From: a virus
Taxonomy: Duplodnaviria > Heunggongvirae > Uroviricota > Caudoviricetes
DNA length: 64,000 bases
Virus record (IMG/VR): IMGVR_UViG_3300042311_000626
Coordinates: 1 to 64,000 of that record
Strand: one strand, 5' to 3'
Part shown: piece by piece, positions 111 through 18,454 of the stretch
Layout of the letters: every line of letters begins with the position of its first letter
Position numbering within the stretch: the stretch's first letter is position 1
Notes under the pieces: generated by a model
What the model saw: only the letters and a program-made list of their open reading frames with translations
What the model was told of the DNA's origin: nothing
Database searches by the model: none
Translations under genes and position numbers: made by a program

Positions 111-305
111 ATGGCAGGACTATTTGATATGCTTGATCACGGCATTGCCGCAGAATTAGGAGTTGATGTAGAAACATACATCAAAATAATTGATCATAAA
201 TGTACTGAAGAAGAAGCTAATTTTATTATTCTGACTATAATGGAAGAGGATCAAGGTAATTTAGAGAAAGCAAAAGAAACGTTTAATAAGTATTTGAATG
301 AATAG
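111..305 (+). CDS. hypothetical protein
   Basis: 64-aa ORF with AT-rich codon usage like its neighbours; 8-nt overlap with the thyA start suggests translational coupling. Confidence 0.4.
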   Translation: MAGLFDMLDHGIAAELGVDVETYIKIIDHKCTEEEANFIILTIMEEDQGNLEKAKETFNKYLNE

Positions 306-1350
306 TTTAGATAAACAATACATCGATCTTTTAAAAACAATACTAGAACATGGTGTTGATAAGAAAGATAGAACAGGTACAGGAACAAAATCAATCTTCG
401 GTTATACTATCAGACATAACATGAAGGATGGTTTTCCTTTACTTACAACTAAGAAAATGCCATTCAAAACAATTGTAACTGAACTGTTATGGTTTTTACA
501 AGGCAATACTAACATAAAGTACTTAGTTGATAATAGTTGTCACATCTGGGATGGTGATGCTTTTAAGAACTATGTAAACACATACAAAGGAAACTTTCCA
601 ATGGGTATGGAAGAGTTTATTGAAACTATTAAAACAAATGATGAGTTTGCTGAAAGGTGGGGTAAGTTAGGTCCAATCTATGGTAAGCAATGGAGAGATT
701 GGGGAAGTAAAAAAGAATATGGCCAAGGTGAAAGTATAATGTATGGAGGTCAAGATCAAATCCAAAATCTAATCAACGACCTCAAAACAAATCCAGACTC
801 AAGACGAATGATGGTTAATGCTTGGAATGTTGGAGAATTAGACCAAATGGTTCTTCCACCTTGTCATTATGGATTTCAAGTTTATACAAGAGAGTTGAGT
901 CACGAAGAAAGGTATAATGAATATAATATTAAATTTAAAGATAGATGTACTGCAGATTGTTACACTAAAGAAGATTTTGACAGTAAAGGAATACCAACGA
1001 GAGCAATCTCTTTAATGTGGAATCAACGTTCAGTAGATACATTCTTAGGTTTACCATTCAACATTGCTTCTTATGGATTATTATTGATGATGTTAGCAGA
1101 TGAAGTAAATATGGTTCCTGACCAATTGATTGGTAATTTAGGAGATGTTCATTTGTATTCAAATCATATTGAACAAGCAAAACAACAAATAGAAAGAGAG
1201 CCAATGAAACTTCCAACATTCGATTGTCCTGCTATGAATGAAATTCCTCATACAACATTTGATGAACTGGTATTTAGATTACAACCATGTGATTTTTACA
1301 TGGATGACTACGAATCACATCCAACAATTAAAGCACCTTTAAGCAACTAA
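298..1350 (+). CDS. thyA: thymidylate synthase (ThyA-type, folate-dependent)
   Basis: Motifs DRTGTGT, catalytic Cys in VLPPCH, NQRSVD, FLGLPFNIASY; ~35-aa in-frame insertion after QVYTRE. Confidence 0.92.
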   Translation: MNSLDKQYIDLLKTILEHGVDKKDRTGTGTKSIFGYTIRHNMKDGFPLLTTKKMPFKTIVTELLWFLQGNTNIKYLVDNSCHIWDGDAFKNYVNTYKGNFPMGMEEFIETIKTNDEFAERWGKLGPIYGKQWRDWGSKKEYGQGESIMYGGQDQIQNLINDLKTNPDSRRMMVNAWNVGELDQMVLPPCHYGFQVYTRELSHEERYNEYNIKFKDRCTADCYTKEDFDSKGIPTRAISLMWNQRSVDTFLGLPFNIASYGLLLMMLADEVNMVPDQLIGNLGDVHLYSNHIEQAKQQIEREPMKLPTFDCPAMNEIPHTTFDELVFRLQPCDFYMDDYESHPTIKAPLSN

Positions 1351-2731: not shown

Positions 2732-3523
2732 ATGCCAATTACAAACGAAAGAAACCCGATGACATTAGCGCAGTTAAATGCCGTATGTCCAAGTGCATTT
2801 ACAAGAGTAGCTGCACCTAATGTATCAACTAATTATACTCATATCCCAACATCACAAGTGATTGAGGATATGATTGAATTAGGATGGACACCAGTAAGTG
2901 CTCAAGAAGTAAAATCAAGAAAATTAGTAGGTTTTCAAAAACACATCATCAGATTTCAAAATCAAAACATTACGATTACTGGAACTAATAATGATAATGT
3001 ATTTCCTGAGTTATTATTAACTAATTCACACGATGGTAAAAATGCATTCCATTTAAGAGTTGGATTGTATAGAACTGTATGTTCTAATGGTCTAGTAGTT
3101 GCTGATGCTGAATTTAGCAATGTTTCAATTCGTCATATGGGTTATACATTTGAAGAATTACGTACAAAAGTTGTAAATTTAATTGAAACTTTACCAAATT
3201 TAGTAAATAAAATCAACCAATTCAGAGATATATCATTATCAGATGAACAAATGATTGAATTTGCAACACAAGCAGCAATGGCTAGATGGAACAATTCAGA
3301 TATTACTGTTAATCCAAATGAATTATTAGTAGCAGAACGTAATTTAGATATGGGTAATGATTTATGGGCTGTGTTTAATAGAGTTCAAGAAAAATTAGTA
3401 AATGGTGGGTTCAATTACAATAACGGTAGAAAAACACGTAAGGTAAGAGCATTAAAGAATTTTACAGCTGACATGCAATTTAATGGGAAATTGTGGGAAT
3501 TAGCAGAGAGTTATTTAAACTAG
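2732..3523 (+). CDS. hypothetical protein (263 aa)
   Basis: ORF preceded by early motif variant and aaaggttATG context. Confidence 0.5.
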   Translation: MPITNERNPMTLAQLNAVCPSAFTRVAAPNVSTNYTHIPTSQVIEDMIELGWTPVSAQEVKSRKLVGFQKHIIRFQNQNITITGTNNDNVFPELLLTNSHDGKNAFHLRVGLYRTVCSNGLVVADAEFSNVSIRHMGYTFEELRTKVVNLIETLPNLVNKINQFRDISLSDEQMIEFATQAAMARWNNSDITVNPNELLVAERNLDMGNDLWAVFNRVQEKLVNGGFNYNNGRKTRKVRALKNFTADMQFNGKLWELAESYLN

Positions 3524-3550
3524 TATATTTATTTTAAAAATTTAGCAACT

Positions 3551-3811
3551 ATGAACATTTACGATCAATTAGCAGACATTCATTCACAATTAACACATGA
3601 TGAAATGTGGTTATCAATCATTGAAGAATACTTTGAAGAATTCGAAGTAGAAAACATGGATGAATTAATCGATAAAACATCAACACAAGAAAATGATGGT
3701 GTTGTGTATCGTCTTATTAGAGAAGGAGAAGATTTATTAGAATTAAAAGATGACGTCGATGATTACTTCTCAGATGATGATGACGATGAAGATTACAATT
3801 ACAATTATTAA
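3551..3811 (+). CDS. acidic hypothetical protein
   Basis: 86 aa with poly-Asp tail DDDDDEDYNYNY. Confidence 0.45.
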   Translation: MNIYDQLADIHSQLTHDEMWLSIIEEYFEEFEVENMDELIDKTSTQENDGVVYRLIREGEDLLELKDDVDDYFSDDDDDEDYNYNY

Positions 3812-3826
3812 TTAAAAACAAAGGTT

Positions 3827-4435
3827 ATGAAATTTACAAGAAAAGCTGCATTTAATTATGTACAGTTGAGAGGATTACAAAAGTATGTAAAAGACACTAA
3901 AGGATTTATAGCTGGAGGGTGCTTTAAAGATTTATTTCTAGGTAAGAAACTTCGAGACGTAGATGTATTCTTCCAAAACGAAGACGACTACAACGAAGCA
4001 GTTCAAATCTATAATCATAAATGTAGTCGTAAAGATAGTAAAATAAAGAAAATTTACACTAACGACAATTGTACTGGGTATAGAAATTCTAAAACAGGAC
4101 TTAACATTGAATTAATTAAATCGATATTTGGAACACCTGAAGAAATTATAACACAATTCGACTTTACAATTGTGCAAGCGGTATACTTCAATCCACAAAC
4201 TGAGGAAGAAACACAATTCATATACCACCCAGACTTCTTCGAACACTTAACATTAAGACGATTAGTAGTTAATCCAGATATGCCTAAAGCAGTAGCTACT
4301 TTAAACAGAGCATTCAAATATGCTGGGTATGGATTTGGGTTATGTAGAGAAAGTAAGATAATATTGACACAAGCTGTTATTGAACGTGGTGTAGTTGAAG
4401 ATATTAATGGTGATCTTTATTTCGGATTTGATTAA
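3827..4435 (+). CDS. Pol-beta-superfamily nucleotidyltransferase, divergent CCA/poly(A)-polymerase head-domain paralog
   Basis: IAGGCFKDLFLGKKLRDVDVFF matches GGxVRDxxLG..DxDxxx; QFDFTIVQA is a degenerate RRDFTxNA motif. Confidence 0.5.
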   Translation: MKFTRKAAFNYVQLRGLQKYVKDTKGFIAGGCFKDLFLGKKLRDVDVFFQNEDDYNEAVQIYNHKCSRKDSKIKKIYTNDNCTGYRNSKTGLNIELIKSIFGTPEEIITQFDFTIVQAVYFNPQTEEETQFIYHPDFFEHLTLRRLVVNPDMPKAVATLNRAFKYAGYGFGLCRESKIILTQAVIERGVVEDINGDLYFGFD

Positions 4436-4460
4436 AAATATTTGGAGGGGCAAAAGCCCC

Positions 4461-4487
4461 TTCGTAATTTTATAGCATAATTAAAAA
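4461..4487 (+). promoter_or_regulatory. early promoter motif TTCGTAATTTTATAGCATAATTAAAAA
   Basis: Near-identical copy; preceded by ggggcaaaagcccc hairpin. Confidence 0.5.
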
Positions 4488-4496
4488 TAATAGGTT

Positions 4497-4793
4497 ATGA
4501 AACAGTTAGAAAAATTAGTAACACCATTAGTAATATTGTTTATATATTATTGGGCTTGTGAAGGTATGACTAAATTAATATGGAATAAAAAAGATAGTGA
4601 ACAATTTAAGGGTATGGTTAAATTCTTAGGTTTATCTTTAATTTTAGGTTCTATATTGTACATATTTGGAACGTATGCTATGTTCGGTCCTGCACCTTCA
4701 CATATGAAAATATGGTATCAATTATTCTTAGGATTTCATTTATTCTATTTAGGTTTTGGAAACTTATTAAATGTCATTTTAAAACGTAACTAA
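4497..4793 (+). CDS. small membrane protein
   Basis: 98 aa, 3 hydrophobic helices; early motif upstream. Confidence 0.45.
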   Translation: MKQLEKLVTPLVILFIYYWACEGMTKLIWNKKDSEQFKGMVKFLGLSLILGSILYIFGTYAMFGPAPSHMKIWYQLFLGFHLFYLGFGNLLNVILKRN

Positions 4794-4927
4794 CATATGT
4801 CACAAGATCTAAACAAAGAACAAATCCAAAAAGAAATTTTAGAATTAAAATTAAAAAAACCTCTTACATCTGAGGACAAAAAACGTATTCAAAAATTACA
4901 ACAATTATTAGATAAAAAATAAAAGTT

Positions 4928-5116
4928 ATGGCAGATTCAAAGTCAAGCAGCAGTGGATTAGGATTAGGAACGGTATTGTTTCTAATATTCATGGTATTAA
5001 AATTAACAAACTACATTGACTGGTCATGGTGGTGGATAACTGCTCCATTATGGATTCCAATTATAATTTTAGGAGTTGTAGGGTTAATAGCAATATTTTA
5101 TATAAAAAAGTTTTAA
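4928..5116 (+). CDS. small membrane protein
   Basis: 62 aa, 2 TM helices, Trp-rich. Confidence 0.4.
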   Translation: MADSKSSSSGLGLGTVLFLIFMVLKLTNYIDWSWWWITAPLWIPIIILGVVGLIAIFYIKKF

Positions 5117-5117
5117 A

Positions 5118-5348
5118 ATGAAAACAGTAATTAAAATTTTAGCAGGGTTAATACTAGCATTTGGGTTAATCCAATTAACCGATTTAGGTTTGTATTTAAT
5201 GAATCGACCTGACAGTTACCTATTCAACTTAGGTATCATAGTATTAGCTATAGTGGGTGTTGCGTTTGCATTCTTAGGATTATATATGATGAAAGTATTA
5301 AAACCTGAAGAAGTAAAAGAAGAAATTAAACAAGAAAAAGAAGAATAG
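5118..5348 (+). CDS. small membrane protein
   Basis: 76 aa, 2 TM helices, charged C-terminus. Confidence 0.4.
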   Translation: MKTVIKILAGLILAFGLIQLTDLGLYLMNRPDSYLFNLGIIVLAIVGVAFAFLGLYMMKVLKPEEVKEEIKQEKEE

Positions 5349-5350
5349 TT

Positions 5351-5740
5351 ATGGTAGTGTTAATTATAATAGCAATTGTAGGTTTAGTAGTTTTAGGTAT
5401 TATTGAAACCGTCACAACATGTGAATTAGGATCTCCAATCTCTGAAAAAGACATCTCAGATTATTTAGATAGAATTGAGAAAGAAAATCTTATAGAGGGA
5501 GTAACTAAAAGATGGAATGATAAGTTTGTTTTGAATGTAAGGGGGTATAGTCATAGACATACAAGTAATCCTAATATCTATCAAACCCAATACTCACTAT
5601 TATTCCCATACCACATCAGTGATGTAGGAGTGATTCCAGTATGGAGTAAATCTTATACAAGACTTAGAACTATATTTAAAGAGAATATCGAAAACTCTTC
5701 ATATAAAACAGATAAAAGAAAAAAATTAGGACTAGATTAA
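5351..5740 (+). CDS. membrane-anchored hypothetical protein
   Basis: N-terminal TM helix; 129 aa. Confidence 0.4.
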   Translation: MVVLIIIAIVGLVVLGIIETVTTCELGSPISEKDISDYLDRIEKENLIEGVTKRWNDKFVLNVRGYSHRHTSNPNIYQTQYSLLFPYHISDVGVIPVWSKSYTRLRTIFKENIENSSYKTDKRKKLGLD

Positions 5741-5782
5741 AACAAAAACACTTAATTATAAATCAAATTTAAAAACCAAGTT

Positions 5783-6610
5783 ATGAACAGAATTTTAGTA
5801 GCATTAGGATTAATCCTAACAATTTTCGCAATTACAATGTCATGTGAAAACATCGACTCAGGAAACATCGGTATCAAAGTAAACAAGTTTGGTACAGGAC
5901 GAGGAGTAAGTGGGGTTACAGAGTGTACCGGAACAGTATTTTACAATCCGATCACAACAAACATTTATGAATTTCCAATCAACATCAGACATAAAGAGTA
6001 CACAGACGAAGGATCGTTTGTAGTAAACTCTAAAGACGGATCAGAATTTCATGTTAGCCCAATTGTCAACTATAGAATTAATCCTGACAAAGCAACACAA
6101 ATCTTTGCAAAATATAGAAAAGACTTAGATGGTATTGAGAATGGATTCTTAAAGACAGCTGTAACAGAAGCATTTAGAATTGTTACAAATAGTTATACTG
6201 CTGATCAATTAATTTCAAGTAGAGAATCTTTTGATAATAAAGTAAAAGCCACATTAAGAAAACAATTAGAACCTGAAGGATTTGTATTAGATCAGTTTAC
6301 AACTAATTTAGAATATCCAACATCATTTAAGAACGCTATTAACGCTAAAAACAATGCCGTACAAAAAGCATTAATGGCTGAAAATAGAGTTAAACAAGCA
6401 GAAGCTGAAGCTAAAATTAAAGTAGCAACCGCTGAAGGAGATGCTCAAGCGACACTTACAAGAGCGAAAGCTGAAGCTGAAGCAAATGCTTTAAAACAAA
6501 GAACATTAACACCTCTATTAATTCAACAACAATGGATTGAAAAATGGAGAGGAAATGTACCTACAACAACGTTAGGTTCAGGTACAAATGTGATGTATGG
6601 TTTAAAATAA
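5783..6610 (+). CDS. SPFH/band-7 (prohibitin/HflK-C-like) domain lipoprotein
   Basis: Signal plus lipobox (ILTIFAITMSC); SPFH-type core followed by Ala/Glu/Lys coiled-coil (AEAEAKIKVATAEGDAQATLTRAKAEAEANALKQ). Confidence 0.75.
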   Translation: MNRILVALGLILTIFAITMSCENIDSGNIGIKVNKFGTGRGVSGVTECTGTVFYNPITTNIYEFPINIRHKEYTDEGSFVVNSKDGSEFHVSPIVNYRINPDKATQIFAKYRKDLDGIENGFLKTAVTEAFRIVTNSYTADQLISSRESFDNKVKATLRKQLEPEGFVLDQFTTNLEYPTSFKNAINAKNNAVQKALMAENRVKQAEAEAKIKVATAEGDAQATLTRAKAEAEANALKQRTLTPLLIQQQWIEKWRGNVPTTTLGSGTNVMYGLK

Positions 6611-6635
6611 AAAATAATAAAAAACATTTGATTAA

Positions 6636-6661
6636 AGGCTTGCTAACGCGAGCCTTTTTTC
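6636..6661 (+). terminator. rho-independent terminator
   Basis: aggcttgctaacgcgagcc hairpin plus T6. Confidence 0.5.
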
Positions 6662-6687
6662 GTATCTTTATAGCATAGTTTAAAAAA
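6659..6687 (+). promoter_or_regulatory. early promoter motif TTCGTATCTTTATAGCATAGTTTAAAAAA
   Basis: Abuts T-run of terminator 6636-6661; 9 nt before ATG 6696. Confidence 0.5.
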
Positions 6688-6695
6688 TAAAGGTT

Positions 6696-7079
6696 ATGGA
6701 TAAACACACATTACTACAGAAGATCAAATCAGGTAATTACAATCAGCAACAGCTACTAAGTTGGGTAGGATGCTTACCAGGGACTTCAGCAAGTAGAAAG
6801 CCTAAGTTTACTAAAGTAGGAGACATTTATATGCATCCTATATTTCAACATCCATATCTTATCTTGGATAAAAGAGATGGATATTACATCTGCGGATTGA
6901 TTACAAGTGAGAGTAGCTGTCCTGAGATATTAGAAGCATGCAGATCCAGGTTCATGGAAGGGTATATTACAAAGACATTATTTACAGCAAGTGAAATCTC
7001 AGGTAGTTTTATAAACAACTACGACAATACAAGACACTTGAAGAAAGTATTAGTTAAATTAAGAGAAACATTAAAATAG
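6696..7079 (+). CDS. MazF/PemK-like (CcdB/MazF-fold) endoribonuclease-toxin-like protein
   Basis: VGDIYMHPIFQHPYLILD...YICGLITSES parallels PemK/MazF GDIWxVxxxP...RPxLVL...xVxPxTS. Confidence 0.4.
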   Translation: MDKHTLLQKIKSGNYNQQQLLSWVGCLPGTSASRKPKFTKVGDIYMHPIFQHPYLILDKRDGYYICGLITSESSCPEILEACRSRFMEGYITKTLFTASEISGSFINNYDNTRHLKKVLVKLRETLK

Positions 7080-7084
7080 AAGTT

Positions 7085-7318
7085 ATGATAGAGAGAATAG
7101 CAACAGCAATTACAGCCATTATTTTTTTAGGATCTTTAGTAGTAGGGCTTATAACAAGTACTATAGATCTAATCTCAGTAGCTCTTACAGGAAATAGTTT
7201 AACAGGAATACCTATAGAGTTCTTTTTACTTTTAATCGTATGTACACCTCCAATAGCATTAATTACAATCTATTCAGGAGTAGTATTAGATAAAATATTT
7301 AACTTAGAAAATAAATAA
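7085..7318 (+). CDS. small membrane protein
   Basis: 77 aa, 2 TM helices; immediately after the MazF-like gene. Confidence 0.4.
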   Translation: MIERIATAITAIIFLGSLVVGLITSTIDLISVALTGNSLTGIPIEFFLLLIVCTPPIALITIYSGVVLDKIFNLENK

Positions 7319-7321
7319 ATT

Positions 7322-8056
7322 ATGCCAAAAATATTTAAAGTAGGAGGATGCGTCAGAGATGGACTCCTAGGAGTAAAAACAAAAGATATCGACTTCACAT
7401 TTGTATTAGATGATCTAAACAAGACAGTTGAAGAAGGATTCAAAGAGATGGAGCAATGGATGATAGATCAAGGATTTACAATCTTCCTATCCGTTCCAGA
7501 GATGTTTACAATCAGAGCTAAATTTCCAAGTGATCATAAATTTGCTAAATTGGATGCAGACTTTGTAATGGCTAGAAAGGAAGTTAGTTATATTGAAGGA
7601 ACAAGACGTCCAATACTAGAATTAGGAACATTGGGAGATGATTTAGTTCGTAGAGACTTTACAGTCAATGCTATGGCTGAAGATGAGGATGGTAATTTAA
7701 TTGATTTGTTTGACGGTATATGGGCTTTAGAAAGTAAGATGCTTCTCACACCTCTTGAACCAACACAAACGTTTCTAGATGATCCTTTAAGAATGATAAG
7801 AGCACTTAGATTTTCAATCACTAAAGGATTTACAATAGCACCTAAGGTTTGGGCAGCGATGTTTATTCCGACTCTAATTGATAAACTACAACAAGTAGTA
7901 AGTGGTGAGAGAATAAGAGAAGAAATTATAAAGATGATGAAAGTAGATACTGTAGCAACTCTACGATTATTAGCTGAAATTGATAAAATAGAACCTAAAT
8001 TCCTAGAAGCTGTATTTAGTGACGGAATGTGGTTAAAACCAACATTTGAACAATAA
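7322..8056 (+). CDS. CCA tRNA nucleotidyltransferase / poly(A) polymerase family protein (head domain, 244 aa)
   Basis: VGGCVRDGLLGVKTKDIDFTF (GGxVRD...DxD) and RRDFTVNAMA signature motifs. Confidence 0.75.
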   Translation: MPKIFKVGGCVRDGLLGVKTKDIDFTFVLDDLNKTVEEGFKEMEQWMIDQGFTIFLSVPEMFTIRAKFPSDHKFAKLDADFVMARKEVSYIEGTRRPILELGTLGDDLVRRDFTVNAMAEDEDGNLIDLFDGIWALESKMLLTPLEPTQTFLDDPLRMIRALRFSITKGFTIAPKVWAAMFIPTLIDKLQQVVSGERIREEIIKMMKVDTVATLRLLAEIDKIEPKFLEAVFSDGMWLKPTFEQ

Positions 8057-8663
8057 AGTTATGATAAATAATATAGAATTGATTAAGCCATTGCTTAATT
8101 TTGAAAATGAAGGTGACTTTTACATGTTATACGTTTTAAAACGTAAAAAAGATCAACCTGAAGGTGAAAGAGATAATCATCAATCAGTAAGAACACTTCG
8201 TTCATATTGTATCAATTCAATTGAACAATTAGAAAAGAAGTATGACGAGATACAATTGTTATGTGAGACATTTAAAGCAAGAGCTTATATTCACGTTCAA
8301 AAACAAAACCATAAAGATGTTTCTCTAAATATGATGGTTGCTTTAGCACAACGTATACAAGACGGAAACCACCAACAACAATCATTATTTGATTCAGTTG
8401 TAGGTCAATTAAAGACTTATGAAAAGAGATGGATTGTTGATATTGATACTCAAGATGTTGAAGAATTAGTTGAGGTTGCTGAATTTATCTATAATCTTAG
8501 ACCAATTGGACATAAAGTTATAACTACAATTCCAACCAAAAACGGGTTTCATCTGATAACCGAACGATTTGATGTTTTATCTTTTAAAAATAGATATTCA
8601 GATATTGACATTCAAAAGAAAAATCCAACACTACTTTATTTACCAAATAGTTTGGATGATTAA
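8046..8663 (+). CDS. hypothetical protein (205 aa)
   Basis: ORF between nucleotidyltransferase and ligase. Confidence 0.45.
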   Translation: MNNKVMINNIELIKPLLNFENEGDFYMLYVLKRKKDQPEGERDNHQSVRTLRSYCINSIEQLEKKYDEIQLLCETFKARAYIHVQKQNHKDVSLNMMVALAQRIQDGNHQQQSLFDSVVGQLKTYEKRWIVDIDTQDVEELVEVAEFIYNLRPIGHKVITTIPTKNGFHLITERFDVLSFKNRYSDIDIQKKNPTLLYLPNSLDD

Positions 8664-8670
8664 ATTACCA

Positions 8671-8697
8671 TTCGTAATTTTATAGCATAATTTAAAA
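8671..8697 (+). promoter_or_regulatory. early promoter motif TTCGTAATTTTATAGCATAATTTAAAA
   Basis: Consensus copy upstream of ligase gene. Confidence 0.5.
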
Positions 8698-8709
8698 CAA
8701 ATAAAAGTT

Positions 8710-9819
8710 ATGACATTACCAATTTTGTACAAACGTTCAAACAGTAAAGAACACATCAATCAATGGCAAATTGAGGTTGAAGGAAACAAATTCAGAACAA
8801 CTACAGGATTTGTAAATATGAAAATGTTTACAGGTGATTGGACCGAATGTACTCCTAAAAATGTAGGTAAAAAGAACGCTACAACAGCGGAAGAACAAGC
8901 ATTGTTCGAAGCACAAGCACTATGGCAAAAACGTAAAGATTTAGGTTATTGGGAAGACATAAATGATTGTGATAAGAAAGTATTCTTTCAACCTATGTTA
9001 GCTCAAGACTATGACAAACGTAAGGATAAAGTACAGTTCCCAATTTTATCACAACCAAAACTAGACGGAGTAAGATGTATAGTTAAATCAGATGGTATGT
9101 GGACACGAACAGGAAAGGAAATTATATCTGCTCCTCACATATTTGAAGGACTAAAACACGTATTTGAAACACAACCTGATTTAGTATTGGATGGTGAATT
9201 ATATACTTCAAATACAGAAGTAGATTTCAACACAATCATATCATGTGTTAGAAAAACAAAACCAACACAAGCCGATTTAGATTTATCTACTCGATATATT
9301 GAGTATTGGATGTATGACATGTATGAAGGTGAAGATTTAATATATGCTTCAAGACGAGGTAAATTGTTAAGTTTATTTCTTACATATGATATATCAATTC
9401 TTTATTATAAAATTGTTGAAACAACTAATGTAATTTCATTTGAACAGATTAATCTAAAATTACAAGAATATATTGAACAAGGTTTTGAAGGTCAAATGTT
9501 AAGAGATCCAAACACACCTTATGAAAATAAACGTTCAAATGGTTTATTAAAACATAAAACATTCTTTGATGAAGAGTTTACAATAATAGATTATTCCGAA
9601 GGTATAGGTAAATTTAGTGGTAAAGTAGCAACATTAAAAGTAAATGTTAGTGGTGTAGAAGTGGATTGTACCATAAATGGAACGATGGAGTATTTAGAAG
9701 AATTATTTCAAATCAAAGACACATTAATTGGTAAACAAGCAACAGTTAAGTATTTTGAAAAAACGGTAGATGGTTCATTAAGATTTCCAAAAGTAATAGC
9801 GATACGAGATTATGAATAA
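8710..9819 (+). CDS. ATP-dependent DNA ligase with ~100-aa N-terminal extension
   Basis: Motif I KLDGVR, motif III LDGELY, motif IV EGQMLR, motif V LLKHK. Confidence 0.8.
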   Translation: MTLPILYKRSNSKEHINQWQIEVEGNKFRTTTGFVNMKMFTGDWTECTPKNVGKKNATTAEEQALFEAQALWQKRKDLGYWEDINDCDKKVFFQPMLAQDYDKRKDKVQFPILSQPKLDGVRCIVKSDGMWTRTGKEIISAPHIFEGLKHVFETQPDLVLDGELYTSNTEVDFNTIISCVRKTKPTQADLDLSTRYIEYWMYDMYEGEDLIYASRRGKLLSLFLTYDISILYYKIVETTNVISFEQINLKLQEYIEQGFEGQMLRDPNTPYENKRSNGLLKHKTFFDEEFTIIDYSEGIGKFSGKVATLKVNVSGVEVDCTINGTMEYLEELFQIKDTLIGKQATVKYFEKTVDGSLRFPKVIAIRDYE

Positions 9820-9879
9820 AAAATTACAAGAAAGCTTGCGGTACACAACATCAATACAAACATACGTATATACAAGAAT

Positions 9880-10068
9880 ATGAAACGATTATTATACAAC
9901 ATAGCATTTTGGATTGGTTATACAATCGTAATTGAAGATACTCTAATGAGTTGGGAAAAGTGGGAGATAAAAAAATACACTCACATTGTGGTATACAAGT
10001 ATTATGGTAGATTTAAACATGACAATAGCATTAAGTTAAGACGTGTGTGGGCGCTTAAAATAAGATAA
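9880..10068 (+). CDS. hypothetical protein
   Basis: 62-aa ORF; CGTATATACAA motif 5 nt upstream. Confidence 0.3.
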   Translation: MKRLLYNIAFWIGYTIVIEDTLMSWEKWEIKKYTHIVVYKYYGRFKHDNSIKLRRVWALKIR

Positions 10069-17980: not shown

Positions 17981-18454
17981 ATGGGAGAATTTAAACACAT
18001 AACATTAGACGAAGCTAAATCGGATTATTATCCTAAACCCGAAGGAGTAAATTGTTTTTACTCTGATGCTTATACTTTAACACCTGATCCTAATGATCCA
18101 ACTAATGATTATGTACATTATTGGGTAAAGAATAATAAATTTAATGCTTCCTTATCATTTAACGAAGGATACATTTATATTTTGGAGAATAAAGGTCAAC
18201 CTGGTGTGTTGAAAATTGGATATACGGATAGGACGCCACAGGAGAGAGTCCGAGAGATTAACGGGGCAACAGGTGTTATAACACCTTGGTACATAGTTAA
18301 CGCATTCGCATGTAGAGCGCCTTTACAAATTGAATCTTTGATACATAAGAAACTTAAACCATTTCATGTTAATAAAGAAGGATTTGCTGTAACTATACCC
18401 TATGCTGAGGAAACAATTGCTGGTGTTATTTCCGATAATAATGCAAGTATTTAG
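17981..18454 (+). CDS. T5orf172/MUG113-type GIY-YIG-superfamily domain protein
   Basis: GYIYILENKGQPGVLKIGYTDRTPQERVREIN matches the T5orf172 core (YxYxL...KIGxT...R); ATG at 17981 preferred over track start 17945. Confidence 0.5.
   Translation: MGEFKHITLDEAKSDYYPKPEGVNCFYSDAYTLTPDPNDPTNDYVHYWVKNNKFNASLSFNEGYIYILENKGQPGVLKIGYTDRTPQERVREINGATGVITPWYIVNAFACRAPLQIESLIHKKLKPFHVNKEGFAVTIPYAEETIAGVISDNNASI

Follow-up and report, generated by a model that had tools for sequence, protein, structure and literature searches.

The stretch of DNA analysed here (64,000 nucleotides, positions 1 to 64,000 of the IMG/VR virus record IMGVR_UViG_3300042311_000626; hereafter the window) comes from a tailed phage (Caudoviricetes) and encodes, in its early region, two small proteins with the signatures of enzymes that build the CCA end of tRNAs. 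These proteins, ORF1 and ORF2 (202 and 244 amino acids (aa), respectively; Table 1), are on balance best explained as two functionally separate nucleotidyltransferases that have an ancient fold in common: ORF2 would be a tRNA CCA enzyme, and ORF1 a protein of the type of Gad2, the second Gabija anti-defence protein. A first-pass annotation of the same DNA had described the two genes as paralogues and had raised the possibility of a split CC-adding plus A-adding pair. Its reading of the individual proteins is partly borne out. Both genes lie where it placed them, on the + strand and with the lengths it gave, and the strings that it quoted are exact for ORF1 (GGCFKDLFLG, residues 30-39; DVDVFF, 44-49; QFDFTIVQA, 110-118) as well as for ORF2 (GGCVRDGLLG, 8-17; DIDF, 22-25; RRDFTVNAMA, 110-119). 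Both proteins belong to the class II CCA/poly(A) polymerase (PAP) structural family, ORF2 by its Pfam matches and ORF1 by its fold. Loss of the catalytic carboxylates had been named in advance as one observation that would speak against such enzymes; both proteins keep the DxD motif.

ORF1 and the Gad2 family

Gad2 was described by Yirmiya et al. as a 400-aa protein of phage SPbetaL7 in which AlphaFold predicts a nucleotidyltransferase domain; SPbetaL7 without Gad2 is Gabija-sensitive, expressed Gad2 is toxic, and Gabija defence is lost in the presence of a homologue that is not toxic (10.1101/2023.05.01.538930). Several comparisons tie ORF1 to this protein. With the Pfam PolyA_pol head model PF01743, ORF1 reaches 18.1 bits, below the cut-off of 23, and residues 27-53 alone are matched; its PHROG match is to phrog_4400, a family of unassigned function (E 4.8e-52). 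A precomputed match to PF26128 (Gad2) is present on the ORF1-identical protein (contigs L001, L002 and L012) and on all 120 homologues listed. In a tblastn search of 2.3 Gb, ORF1 finds the SPbetaL7 gene annotated as Gad2 (E 5e-5), and BLASTP aligns ORF1 residues 17-181 with Gad2 residues 18-173 at 26% identity (E 1e-11). The PHROG cross-matches are reciprocal (Gad2 to the PHROG of ORF1, 7.9e-27; ORF1 to the PHROG of Gad2, 1.4e-12), and a hidden Markov model (HMM) of the ORF1 family scores 56 bits against Gad2 versus 9 bits against ORF2. Both phage-encoded, predicted nucleotidyltransferases contain the IAGG...DxDxxF and FDFT motifs. On this sequence evidence, ORF1 adds a new, short protein to the Gad2 family, and that membership points to a function other than tRNA repair.

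ORF1 covers the N-terminal half of Gad2 and stops near Gad2 residue 190-215; it differs from Gad2 in length (202 versus 400 aa), in the loss of the C-terminal half, and in a host phylum that is likely different. The short form is common. A profile of the ORF1 family retrieves 5144 representative clusters at E <= 1e-3, and the best 150 are nearly all 190-230 aa long. Carriers of the short form include small S. thermophilus and Listeria phages, Bacillus Basilisk-like phages, and Bacteroides, crAss-like and Maribacter phages. Among viral structure models, the ORF1 module occurs alone and also as the N-terminal domain of phage proteins of 347-485 aa. Phage 2972, the one phage checked among those tested in a study of S. 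thermophilus Gabija (10.1101/2024.10.22.618286), has no ORF1 homologue and is hence uninformative here.

The AlphaFold model of ORF1 (pLDDT 93.1, pTM 0.87) shows, by fold comparison, the fold of the CCA/PAP enzymes, and each of the nearest solved folds acts on RNA 3' ends; no PDB chain is matched by the ORF1 sequence or by the family profile. In 87 ORF1-family sequences there is no variation at G30, G31, K34, D44, D46, F111, D112, F113 or R161 and almost none at E95, and the GG/DxD of ORF1 aligns with the AGG...DVD of Gad2. Because the catalytic residues are invariant across these sequences, the catalytic centre of ORF1 is intact. Two elements of the CCA enzymes are missing from it. The RRD of motif B is replaced by QFD (family consensus xFDF, with FDF invariant), and the E/D-D-x-x-R template of motif D is absent, its place apparently filled, as judged by sequence pattern against ORF2, by the family consensus PFPVSTFxRxxKY. 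With an intact DxD and no RRD or EDxxR, ORF1 probably transfers nucleotides without CCA-type specificity.

Given these features, ORF1 is best read as a stand-alone counterpart of the catalytic N-terminal domain of Gad2, in which the DxD centre most likely transfers a nucleotide to a putative acceptor, and the outcome may be to disarm a Gabija-type host defence or to act on the host in another way. Gabija has been proposed to sense DNA ends. A more specific and only tentative proposal is that a minimal Gad2 core devoid of the CTP/ATP template counters Gabija-like nuclease-helicase defence by untemplated addition of nucleotides to 3' ends, for example DNA ends. If true, this would represent counter-defence by "tailing" for which no C-terminal targeting domain is needed.

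The same active site could serve a host-directed toxin that, in the manner of MenT, extends or blocks the 3' ends of host tRNA or other RNA and thereby stops host translation, instead of countering one particular defence system. The toxicity of expressed SPbetaL7 Gad2 is consistent with such an activity (10.1101/2023.05.01.538930), as is the RNA 3'-end chemistry of the nearest solved folds. So too is Gp22 of Klebsiella phage fHe-Kpn01, a 182-aa CCA-like protein that is toxic in E. coli (PMC7291057); when compared by pattern, Gp22 has the hG[GS], [DE]h[DE]h and h[DE]h elements at spacings near those of ORF1. The MenT/AbiEii toxins, small nucleotidyltransferases that add nucleotides at tRNA 3' ends, offer a possible working model for ORF1. 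Neither by structure nor by sequence was similarity of ORF1 to MenT or DUF1814 found, and a toxin of this kind is considered unlikely, although it deserves more weight than the alternatives discussed below.

ORF2 and its RNA-repair surroundings

ORF2 matches the head model PF01743 at 65.6 bits (cut-off 23, E 7e-18) and the neck model PolyA_pol_RNAbd PF12627 at 25.4 bits (cut-off 22, E 1.2e-5). Its residues 3-218 align with positions 5-217 of the 245 in phrog_24229, 'tRNA nucleotidyltransferase' (E 2.2e-65). The top PDB sequence match is 9ns4, S. pombe cca2 (E 3.5e-23), in which ORF2 residues 7-216 align with residues 43-258 of the 487-aa enzyme. An alignment of ORF2 with E. coli Cca, a full-length Cca from a phage and short homologues from phages shows that it keeps every one of the five class II motifs: motif A (G8, G9, R12, D13, D22 and D24, with both catalytic carboxylates present), motif B (R110, R111 and D112), motif C (G124, D128 and G132), motif D (D154, L156, R157, R160, R163 and F164, the E/D-D-x-x-R nucleotide template) and motif E (S194, E196, R197 and E201). 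The C-terminus lies about 40 residues past motif E. The motif D pattern DDPLRxxRxxRF and the motif E pattern SxERxxxE are of the CCA type and are invariant across the ORF2 family. CC-only enzymes have a larger deletion ahead of motif B. In ORF2 the corresponding loop falls short of that of E. coli Cca by just 3 residues, and this near-normal length would speak against a CC-only enzyme.

ORF2 is not an isolated case. It has 4507 homologues, many of them on contigs of 150-430 kb, and the best 120 are 239-248 aa long save for one 184-aa fragment; since this length is constant among them, the short ORF2 does not result from truncation. The same short gene is named tRNA nucleotidyltransferase in the isolates Cellulophaga phi4:1 and phi17:2, Microbacterium Zooman and Synechococcus B23. 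The phrog_24229 proteins of three of these (phi4:1 gp032, Zooman gp238 and B23 gp209) exemplify short enzymes of 243-249 aa that have the same motifs and head-plus-neck extent and 40-52% identity to ORF2, with no substantial difference from it. As judged from sequence, ORF2 is a member of an already annotated and very large phage family.

The DNA upstream of the window is in agreement with a role in tRNA metabolism. The first 11 kb of the window is 100% identical to the 152,446-bp JGI metagenome contig Ga0453950_0000001, on which the 9.7 kb that immediately precedes the window carries at least five tRNA genes (Gly-UCC, Glu-UUC, Ala-UGC, Asp-GUC and Met-CAU), the first about 9.6 kb before the window start, in a cluster that may continue beyond the retrieved DNA. 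CCA is encoded by the tRNA-Ala gene only and is missing from the other four of the five. What follows the tRNA genes looks, together with them, like a complete tRNA-repair cassette, with genes for a calcineurin-like Metallophos phosphoesterase, an AAA_33 P-loop kinase, an RNA ligase in which PF09414 is joined by a PHA02142 OB domain, and a cREC_REC protein ('cyclic-phosphate processing'). The phosphoesterase, P-loop kinase and RNA ligase genes beside the tRNA cluster recall the Pnkp/Rnl tRNA repair of phage T4, from which they differ in that the phosphatase is of the calcineurin type and the ligase has the PF09414 and PHA02142 OB domains; the genes fall outside the window. The first-pass annotation had suggested that a ligase and a MazF-like protein nearby could form an RNA damage/repair or anti-defence toolkit. 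The phage does carry an RNA-repair toolkit, but not in those genes: the phosphoesterase, kinase and RNA ligase lie 6-8 kb before the window start, and no tRNA genes or Rfam families are found within the window.

Related loci were counted in IMG/VR at a distance of 10 kb, with 80 ORF1-type and 80 ORF2-type loci that de-replicate at 70% identity to 12 and 37 groups, respectively. At ORF2-type loci, homologues of the repair genes are often direct neighbours; for example, the gap to a kinase gene is -54, -59 or -79 bp, the gap to an RNA ligase gene is -104 or +235 bp, that to a phosphoesterase gene is -18 or +51 bp, and that to a cREC gene is +14 bp. After de-replication, a repair gene adjoins the ORF2 homologue (gaps of 14-235 bp) in 5-6 of the 37 groups. 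ORF2 would most likely add or restore C, C and A at tRNA 3' ends. Probable substrates would be the tRNAs of the phage itself, which are mostly encoded without CCA, and tRNAs trimmed at the tail by host nucleases, host tRNAs possibly included; the gene neighbourhood suggests that ORF2 may act alongside the phosphoesterase, kinase and RNA ligase of the phage. A tRNA 3'-end role is retained as the best reading for ORF2. Because a defence that cuts tRNA 3' tails exists, namely Cas12a3 (PMC12851939), a phage CCA enzyme could plausibly serve in counter-defence as well.

Without a body and tail to act as a 'ruler', ORF2 could be imagined as a general poly(A)/poly(C) polymerase that tails mRNA or small RNA. 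The pcnB models of NCBIfam do match it at 76 bits, and some homologues are named 'poly(A) polymerase' by JGI. The CCA models of the same collection score higher (110 and 101 bits), although 110 bits is below the CCA equivalog cut-off of 438.8. The CCA-type motifs D and E, invariant in the family, and the nearby CCA-less phage tRNA genes and RNA-repair genes likewise argue against general tailing, which is regarded as improbable, and somewhat more so than a toxic ORF1.

Relationship between ORF1 and ORF2

Paralogy of ORF1 and ORF2 in any sense beyond motif A is rejected. BLASTP aligns the two proteins over 36 residues that span motif A only, hhalign of their profiles yields 38 columns at a probability of 15%, and the 9 bits given to ORF2 by the ORF1-family HMM tell the same story. 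The first-pass term "paralogous" is accordingly not confirmed. The two genes also rarely travel together: an ORF2-type gene is found near 2 of the 80 ORF1-type loci, both in close kin of the present phage, and an ORF1-type gene near 1 of the 80 ORF2-type loci. No neighbour of the ORF1-type genes is conserved. Encoded recurrently beside them in other phages are SSB, DnaB, RecT, a DnaC-like loader and DNA methylases rather than proteins of RNA repair; in S. thermophilus phage CHPC877, for example, the ORF1 homologue lies between RecT/exonuclease and SSB/RusA genes.

These observations bear on the proposal that ORF1 and ORF2 form a split CC-adding and A-adding pair, possibly a heterodimer, that rebuilds tRNA CCA ends. 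Such splits exist in nature, as in S. pombe, whose cca1 and cca2 both appear in the list of PDB sequences matched by ORF2, and both phage proteins have the class II head and neck fold with an intact DxD. In addition, a relative with 68% identity carries an AAA_33 kinase gene directly 3' of its Gad2-like gene (L018 10610..11014), the sole case seen of an ORF1-type gene adjoining an RNA-repair gene. However, ORF1 is without the motif B arginines and the template of motif D that selects CTP and ATP, whereas ORF2 has every motif and a loop close in length to that of E. coli Cca. The low co-occurrence points the same way, as does the frequent presence of the ORF1 family in S. thermophilus and Listeria phages of only ~35 kb. 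In the window itself, 2.9 kb of DNA with seven listed ORFs and two terminator-like hairpins lies between ORF1 and ORF2. The split pair is thus very improbable. ORF1 and ORF2 are distant members of one fold family and constitute neither a duplicated pair nor a conserved module. Production of a nucleotide second messenger or signal mimic by either or both proteins, which would fit two nucleotidyltransferases given how frequent nucleotide signals are in defence and counter-defence, is the least probable of the explanations considered.

Several points weigh against the assignment of ORF2 as a tRNA CCA enzyme and ORF1 as a Gad2-type protein. The first-pass annotation was correct that body and tail domains are lacking: the tRNA-binding body and tail are not in ORF2, which covers only the head and neck portion of the S. 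pombe enzyme, and as a result neither tRNA specificity nor a stop after three nucleotides is assured. In comparison to the full-length class II enzymes (E. coli Cca; T. maritima, 3H37; B. stearothermophilus, 1MIV), both ORF1 and ORF2 are without body and tail, ORF1 is also without the RRD arginines and the EDxxR template, and neither has the HD domain of E. coli Cca. tRNA genes occur near 33 of the 80 ORF2-type loci versus 8 of the 80 ORF1-type loci (raw p = 8.6e-6), and this excess is lost on de-replication (14 of 37 versus 6 of 12 groups, p = 0.51). For ORF1, identity to Gad2 is only 26%, and the C-terminal ~190 residues of Gad2 are neither present in ORF1 nor encoded elsewhere in the window; this half may be required for anti-Gabija action. 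Finally, a 2026 review lists the mechanism of Gad2 among those not yet elucidated (PMC12904381).

With p = 0.51 after de-replication, nearby tRNA genes were dropped as a feature that discriminates ORF1-type from ORF2-type loci. A literature search found no biochemical study of the Gad2 mechanism or of the short head-plus-neck phage CCA form.

Neighbouring genes and implications

The features discussed here are collected in Table 1. ORF1 is followed, 8 nt past its stop codon, by a GC-rich hairpin whose 9-bp stem contains 6 G-C pairs and which is trailed by a run of T. A consensus scan for terminators returned 4 sites versus 2.0 +/- 1.5 expected, which is weak evidence, and the hairpin weakly suggests that ORF1 ends a transcription unit. 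The genes for a DUF932 protein and for an acidic 86-aa protein lie directly upstream of ORF1 with short gaps, ahead of the same hairpin. Composition and position suggest that the DUF932 and acidic-protein genes possibly belong to a small accessory or counter-defence block, and that the acidic protein is possibly a DNA mimic. PADLOC defence-system models gave no match for ORF1, ORF2 or the neighbours tested.

Table 1 Position and description of ORF1, ORF2 and associated features (window coordinates unless a contig is named).
Feature	Coordinates	Strand	Description
DUF932 protein	2732..3523	+	PF06067, E 2e-34
Acidic protein	3551..3811	+	86 aa, pI 4.05, 30/86 acidic residues, poly-Asp C-terminus
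ORF1	3827..4435	+	202 aa; predicted stand-alone Gad2-family nucleotidyltransferase, CCA/PAP-like head+neck fold
Terminator-like hairpin and T-run	4443..4464	+	GC-rich
SPFH/Band-7 protein	5783..6610	+	between ORF1 and ORF2
127-aa protein	6696..7079	+	earlier called MazF-like
ORF2	7322..8056	+	244 aa; predicted short head+neck-only class II CCA-type tRNA nucleotidyltransferase
200-aa protein	8061..8663	+	phrog_14949; begins 4 nt past the ORF2 stop
ATP-dependent DNA ligase	8710..9819	+	PF01068, E 9.2e-17; PF14743 (DNA-ligase OB); phrog_114, E 2.6e-81; NCBIfam PRK09125 'DNA ligase'
tRNA cluster and repair genes	L012 63..5174		outside the window, upstream (window start = L012 9704)

Between ORF1 and ORF2, the segment 4497..6610 (+) contains four ORFs that encode just 62-129 aa each and have hydrophobic stretches of membrane-like character, and after them the SPFH/Band-7 gene. 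The 127-aa protein encoded after it had been called MazF-like; no match was found for it by sequence search of Pfam, PHROGs, NCBIfam, PADLOC or the PDB sequences, and the name is not upheld. The gene that directly follows ORF2 encodes a protein with 6699 homologues and no Pfam family, for which a fold search was uninformative. Its conserved motifs are R.KD, ARAYIN, W[IV][IV]D[IV]D, IP[TS]K.G.H[LI]I and K[KN]..T. A homologue of this protein is encoded near ORF2 homologues at 28 of the 80 loci, with several gaps of 23-250 bp, and in Cellulophaga phage phi17:2 only 10 bp separate it from the tRNA nucleotidyltransferase gene downstream. Its homologues stand repeatedly beside phosphoesterase, kinase, cREC and SPFH genes, and SPFH homologues occur within 10 kb of them at 34 of 80 related loci. 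That this protein supplies in trans the RNA-binding function missing from ORF2 is conceivable, although less likely than the tentative reading of ORF1 as a tailing enzyme.

The ligase gene that follows does encode an ATP-dependent ligase, as had been noted, but its domains and family matches are those of a DNA ligase rather than of an RNA ligase. In phi4:1 (L005 5728..6879) and phi17:2 (L176 5358..6509), the gene for the short tRNA nucleotidyltransferase is followed by genes for a protein with a PARP domain (PF00644, from the record annotation), for a small hypothetical protein and for an ATP-dependent DNA ligase. The order nucleotidyltransferase-X-DNA ligase is retained in these two phages while X differs.

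The window as a whole has ~30% G+C, and its larger ORFs are nearly all on a single strand. T4-like genes for terminase, portal and prohead protease are found farther downstream, and, judging from related contigs, a Gp23-type capsid gene lies just beyond the window end. A megablast search of INPHARED with window positions 3000..10000 found no near-identical phage DNA; relatives were found at the protein level only. A thymidylate synthase gene at 298..1350 (+) encodes 350 aa that span the entire 266-position Pfam model, with roughly 80 residues present as insertions. A T5orf172/MUG113-domain gene is located at ~17981..18454 (+), 3' of the early region (precomputed Pfam match on the identical contig).

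Taken as two systems, the apparent paralogue pair resolves into a routine tRNA maturation or repair enzyme, represented by ORF2, and a member of an anti-defence family, represented by ORF1. The abundance of the head-plus-neck CCA-type family in large phages raises the concrete question of whether tRNA can be recognized, and addition stopped after CCA, when body and tail are missing. The short ORF1-type form, in which the template is missing, would in turn be a compact protein with which to find what Gad2-type enzymes modify. The main value of this analysis lies in a corrected interpretation of the two genes and in pointing out a compact Gad2-type enzyme for mechanistic work.

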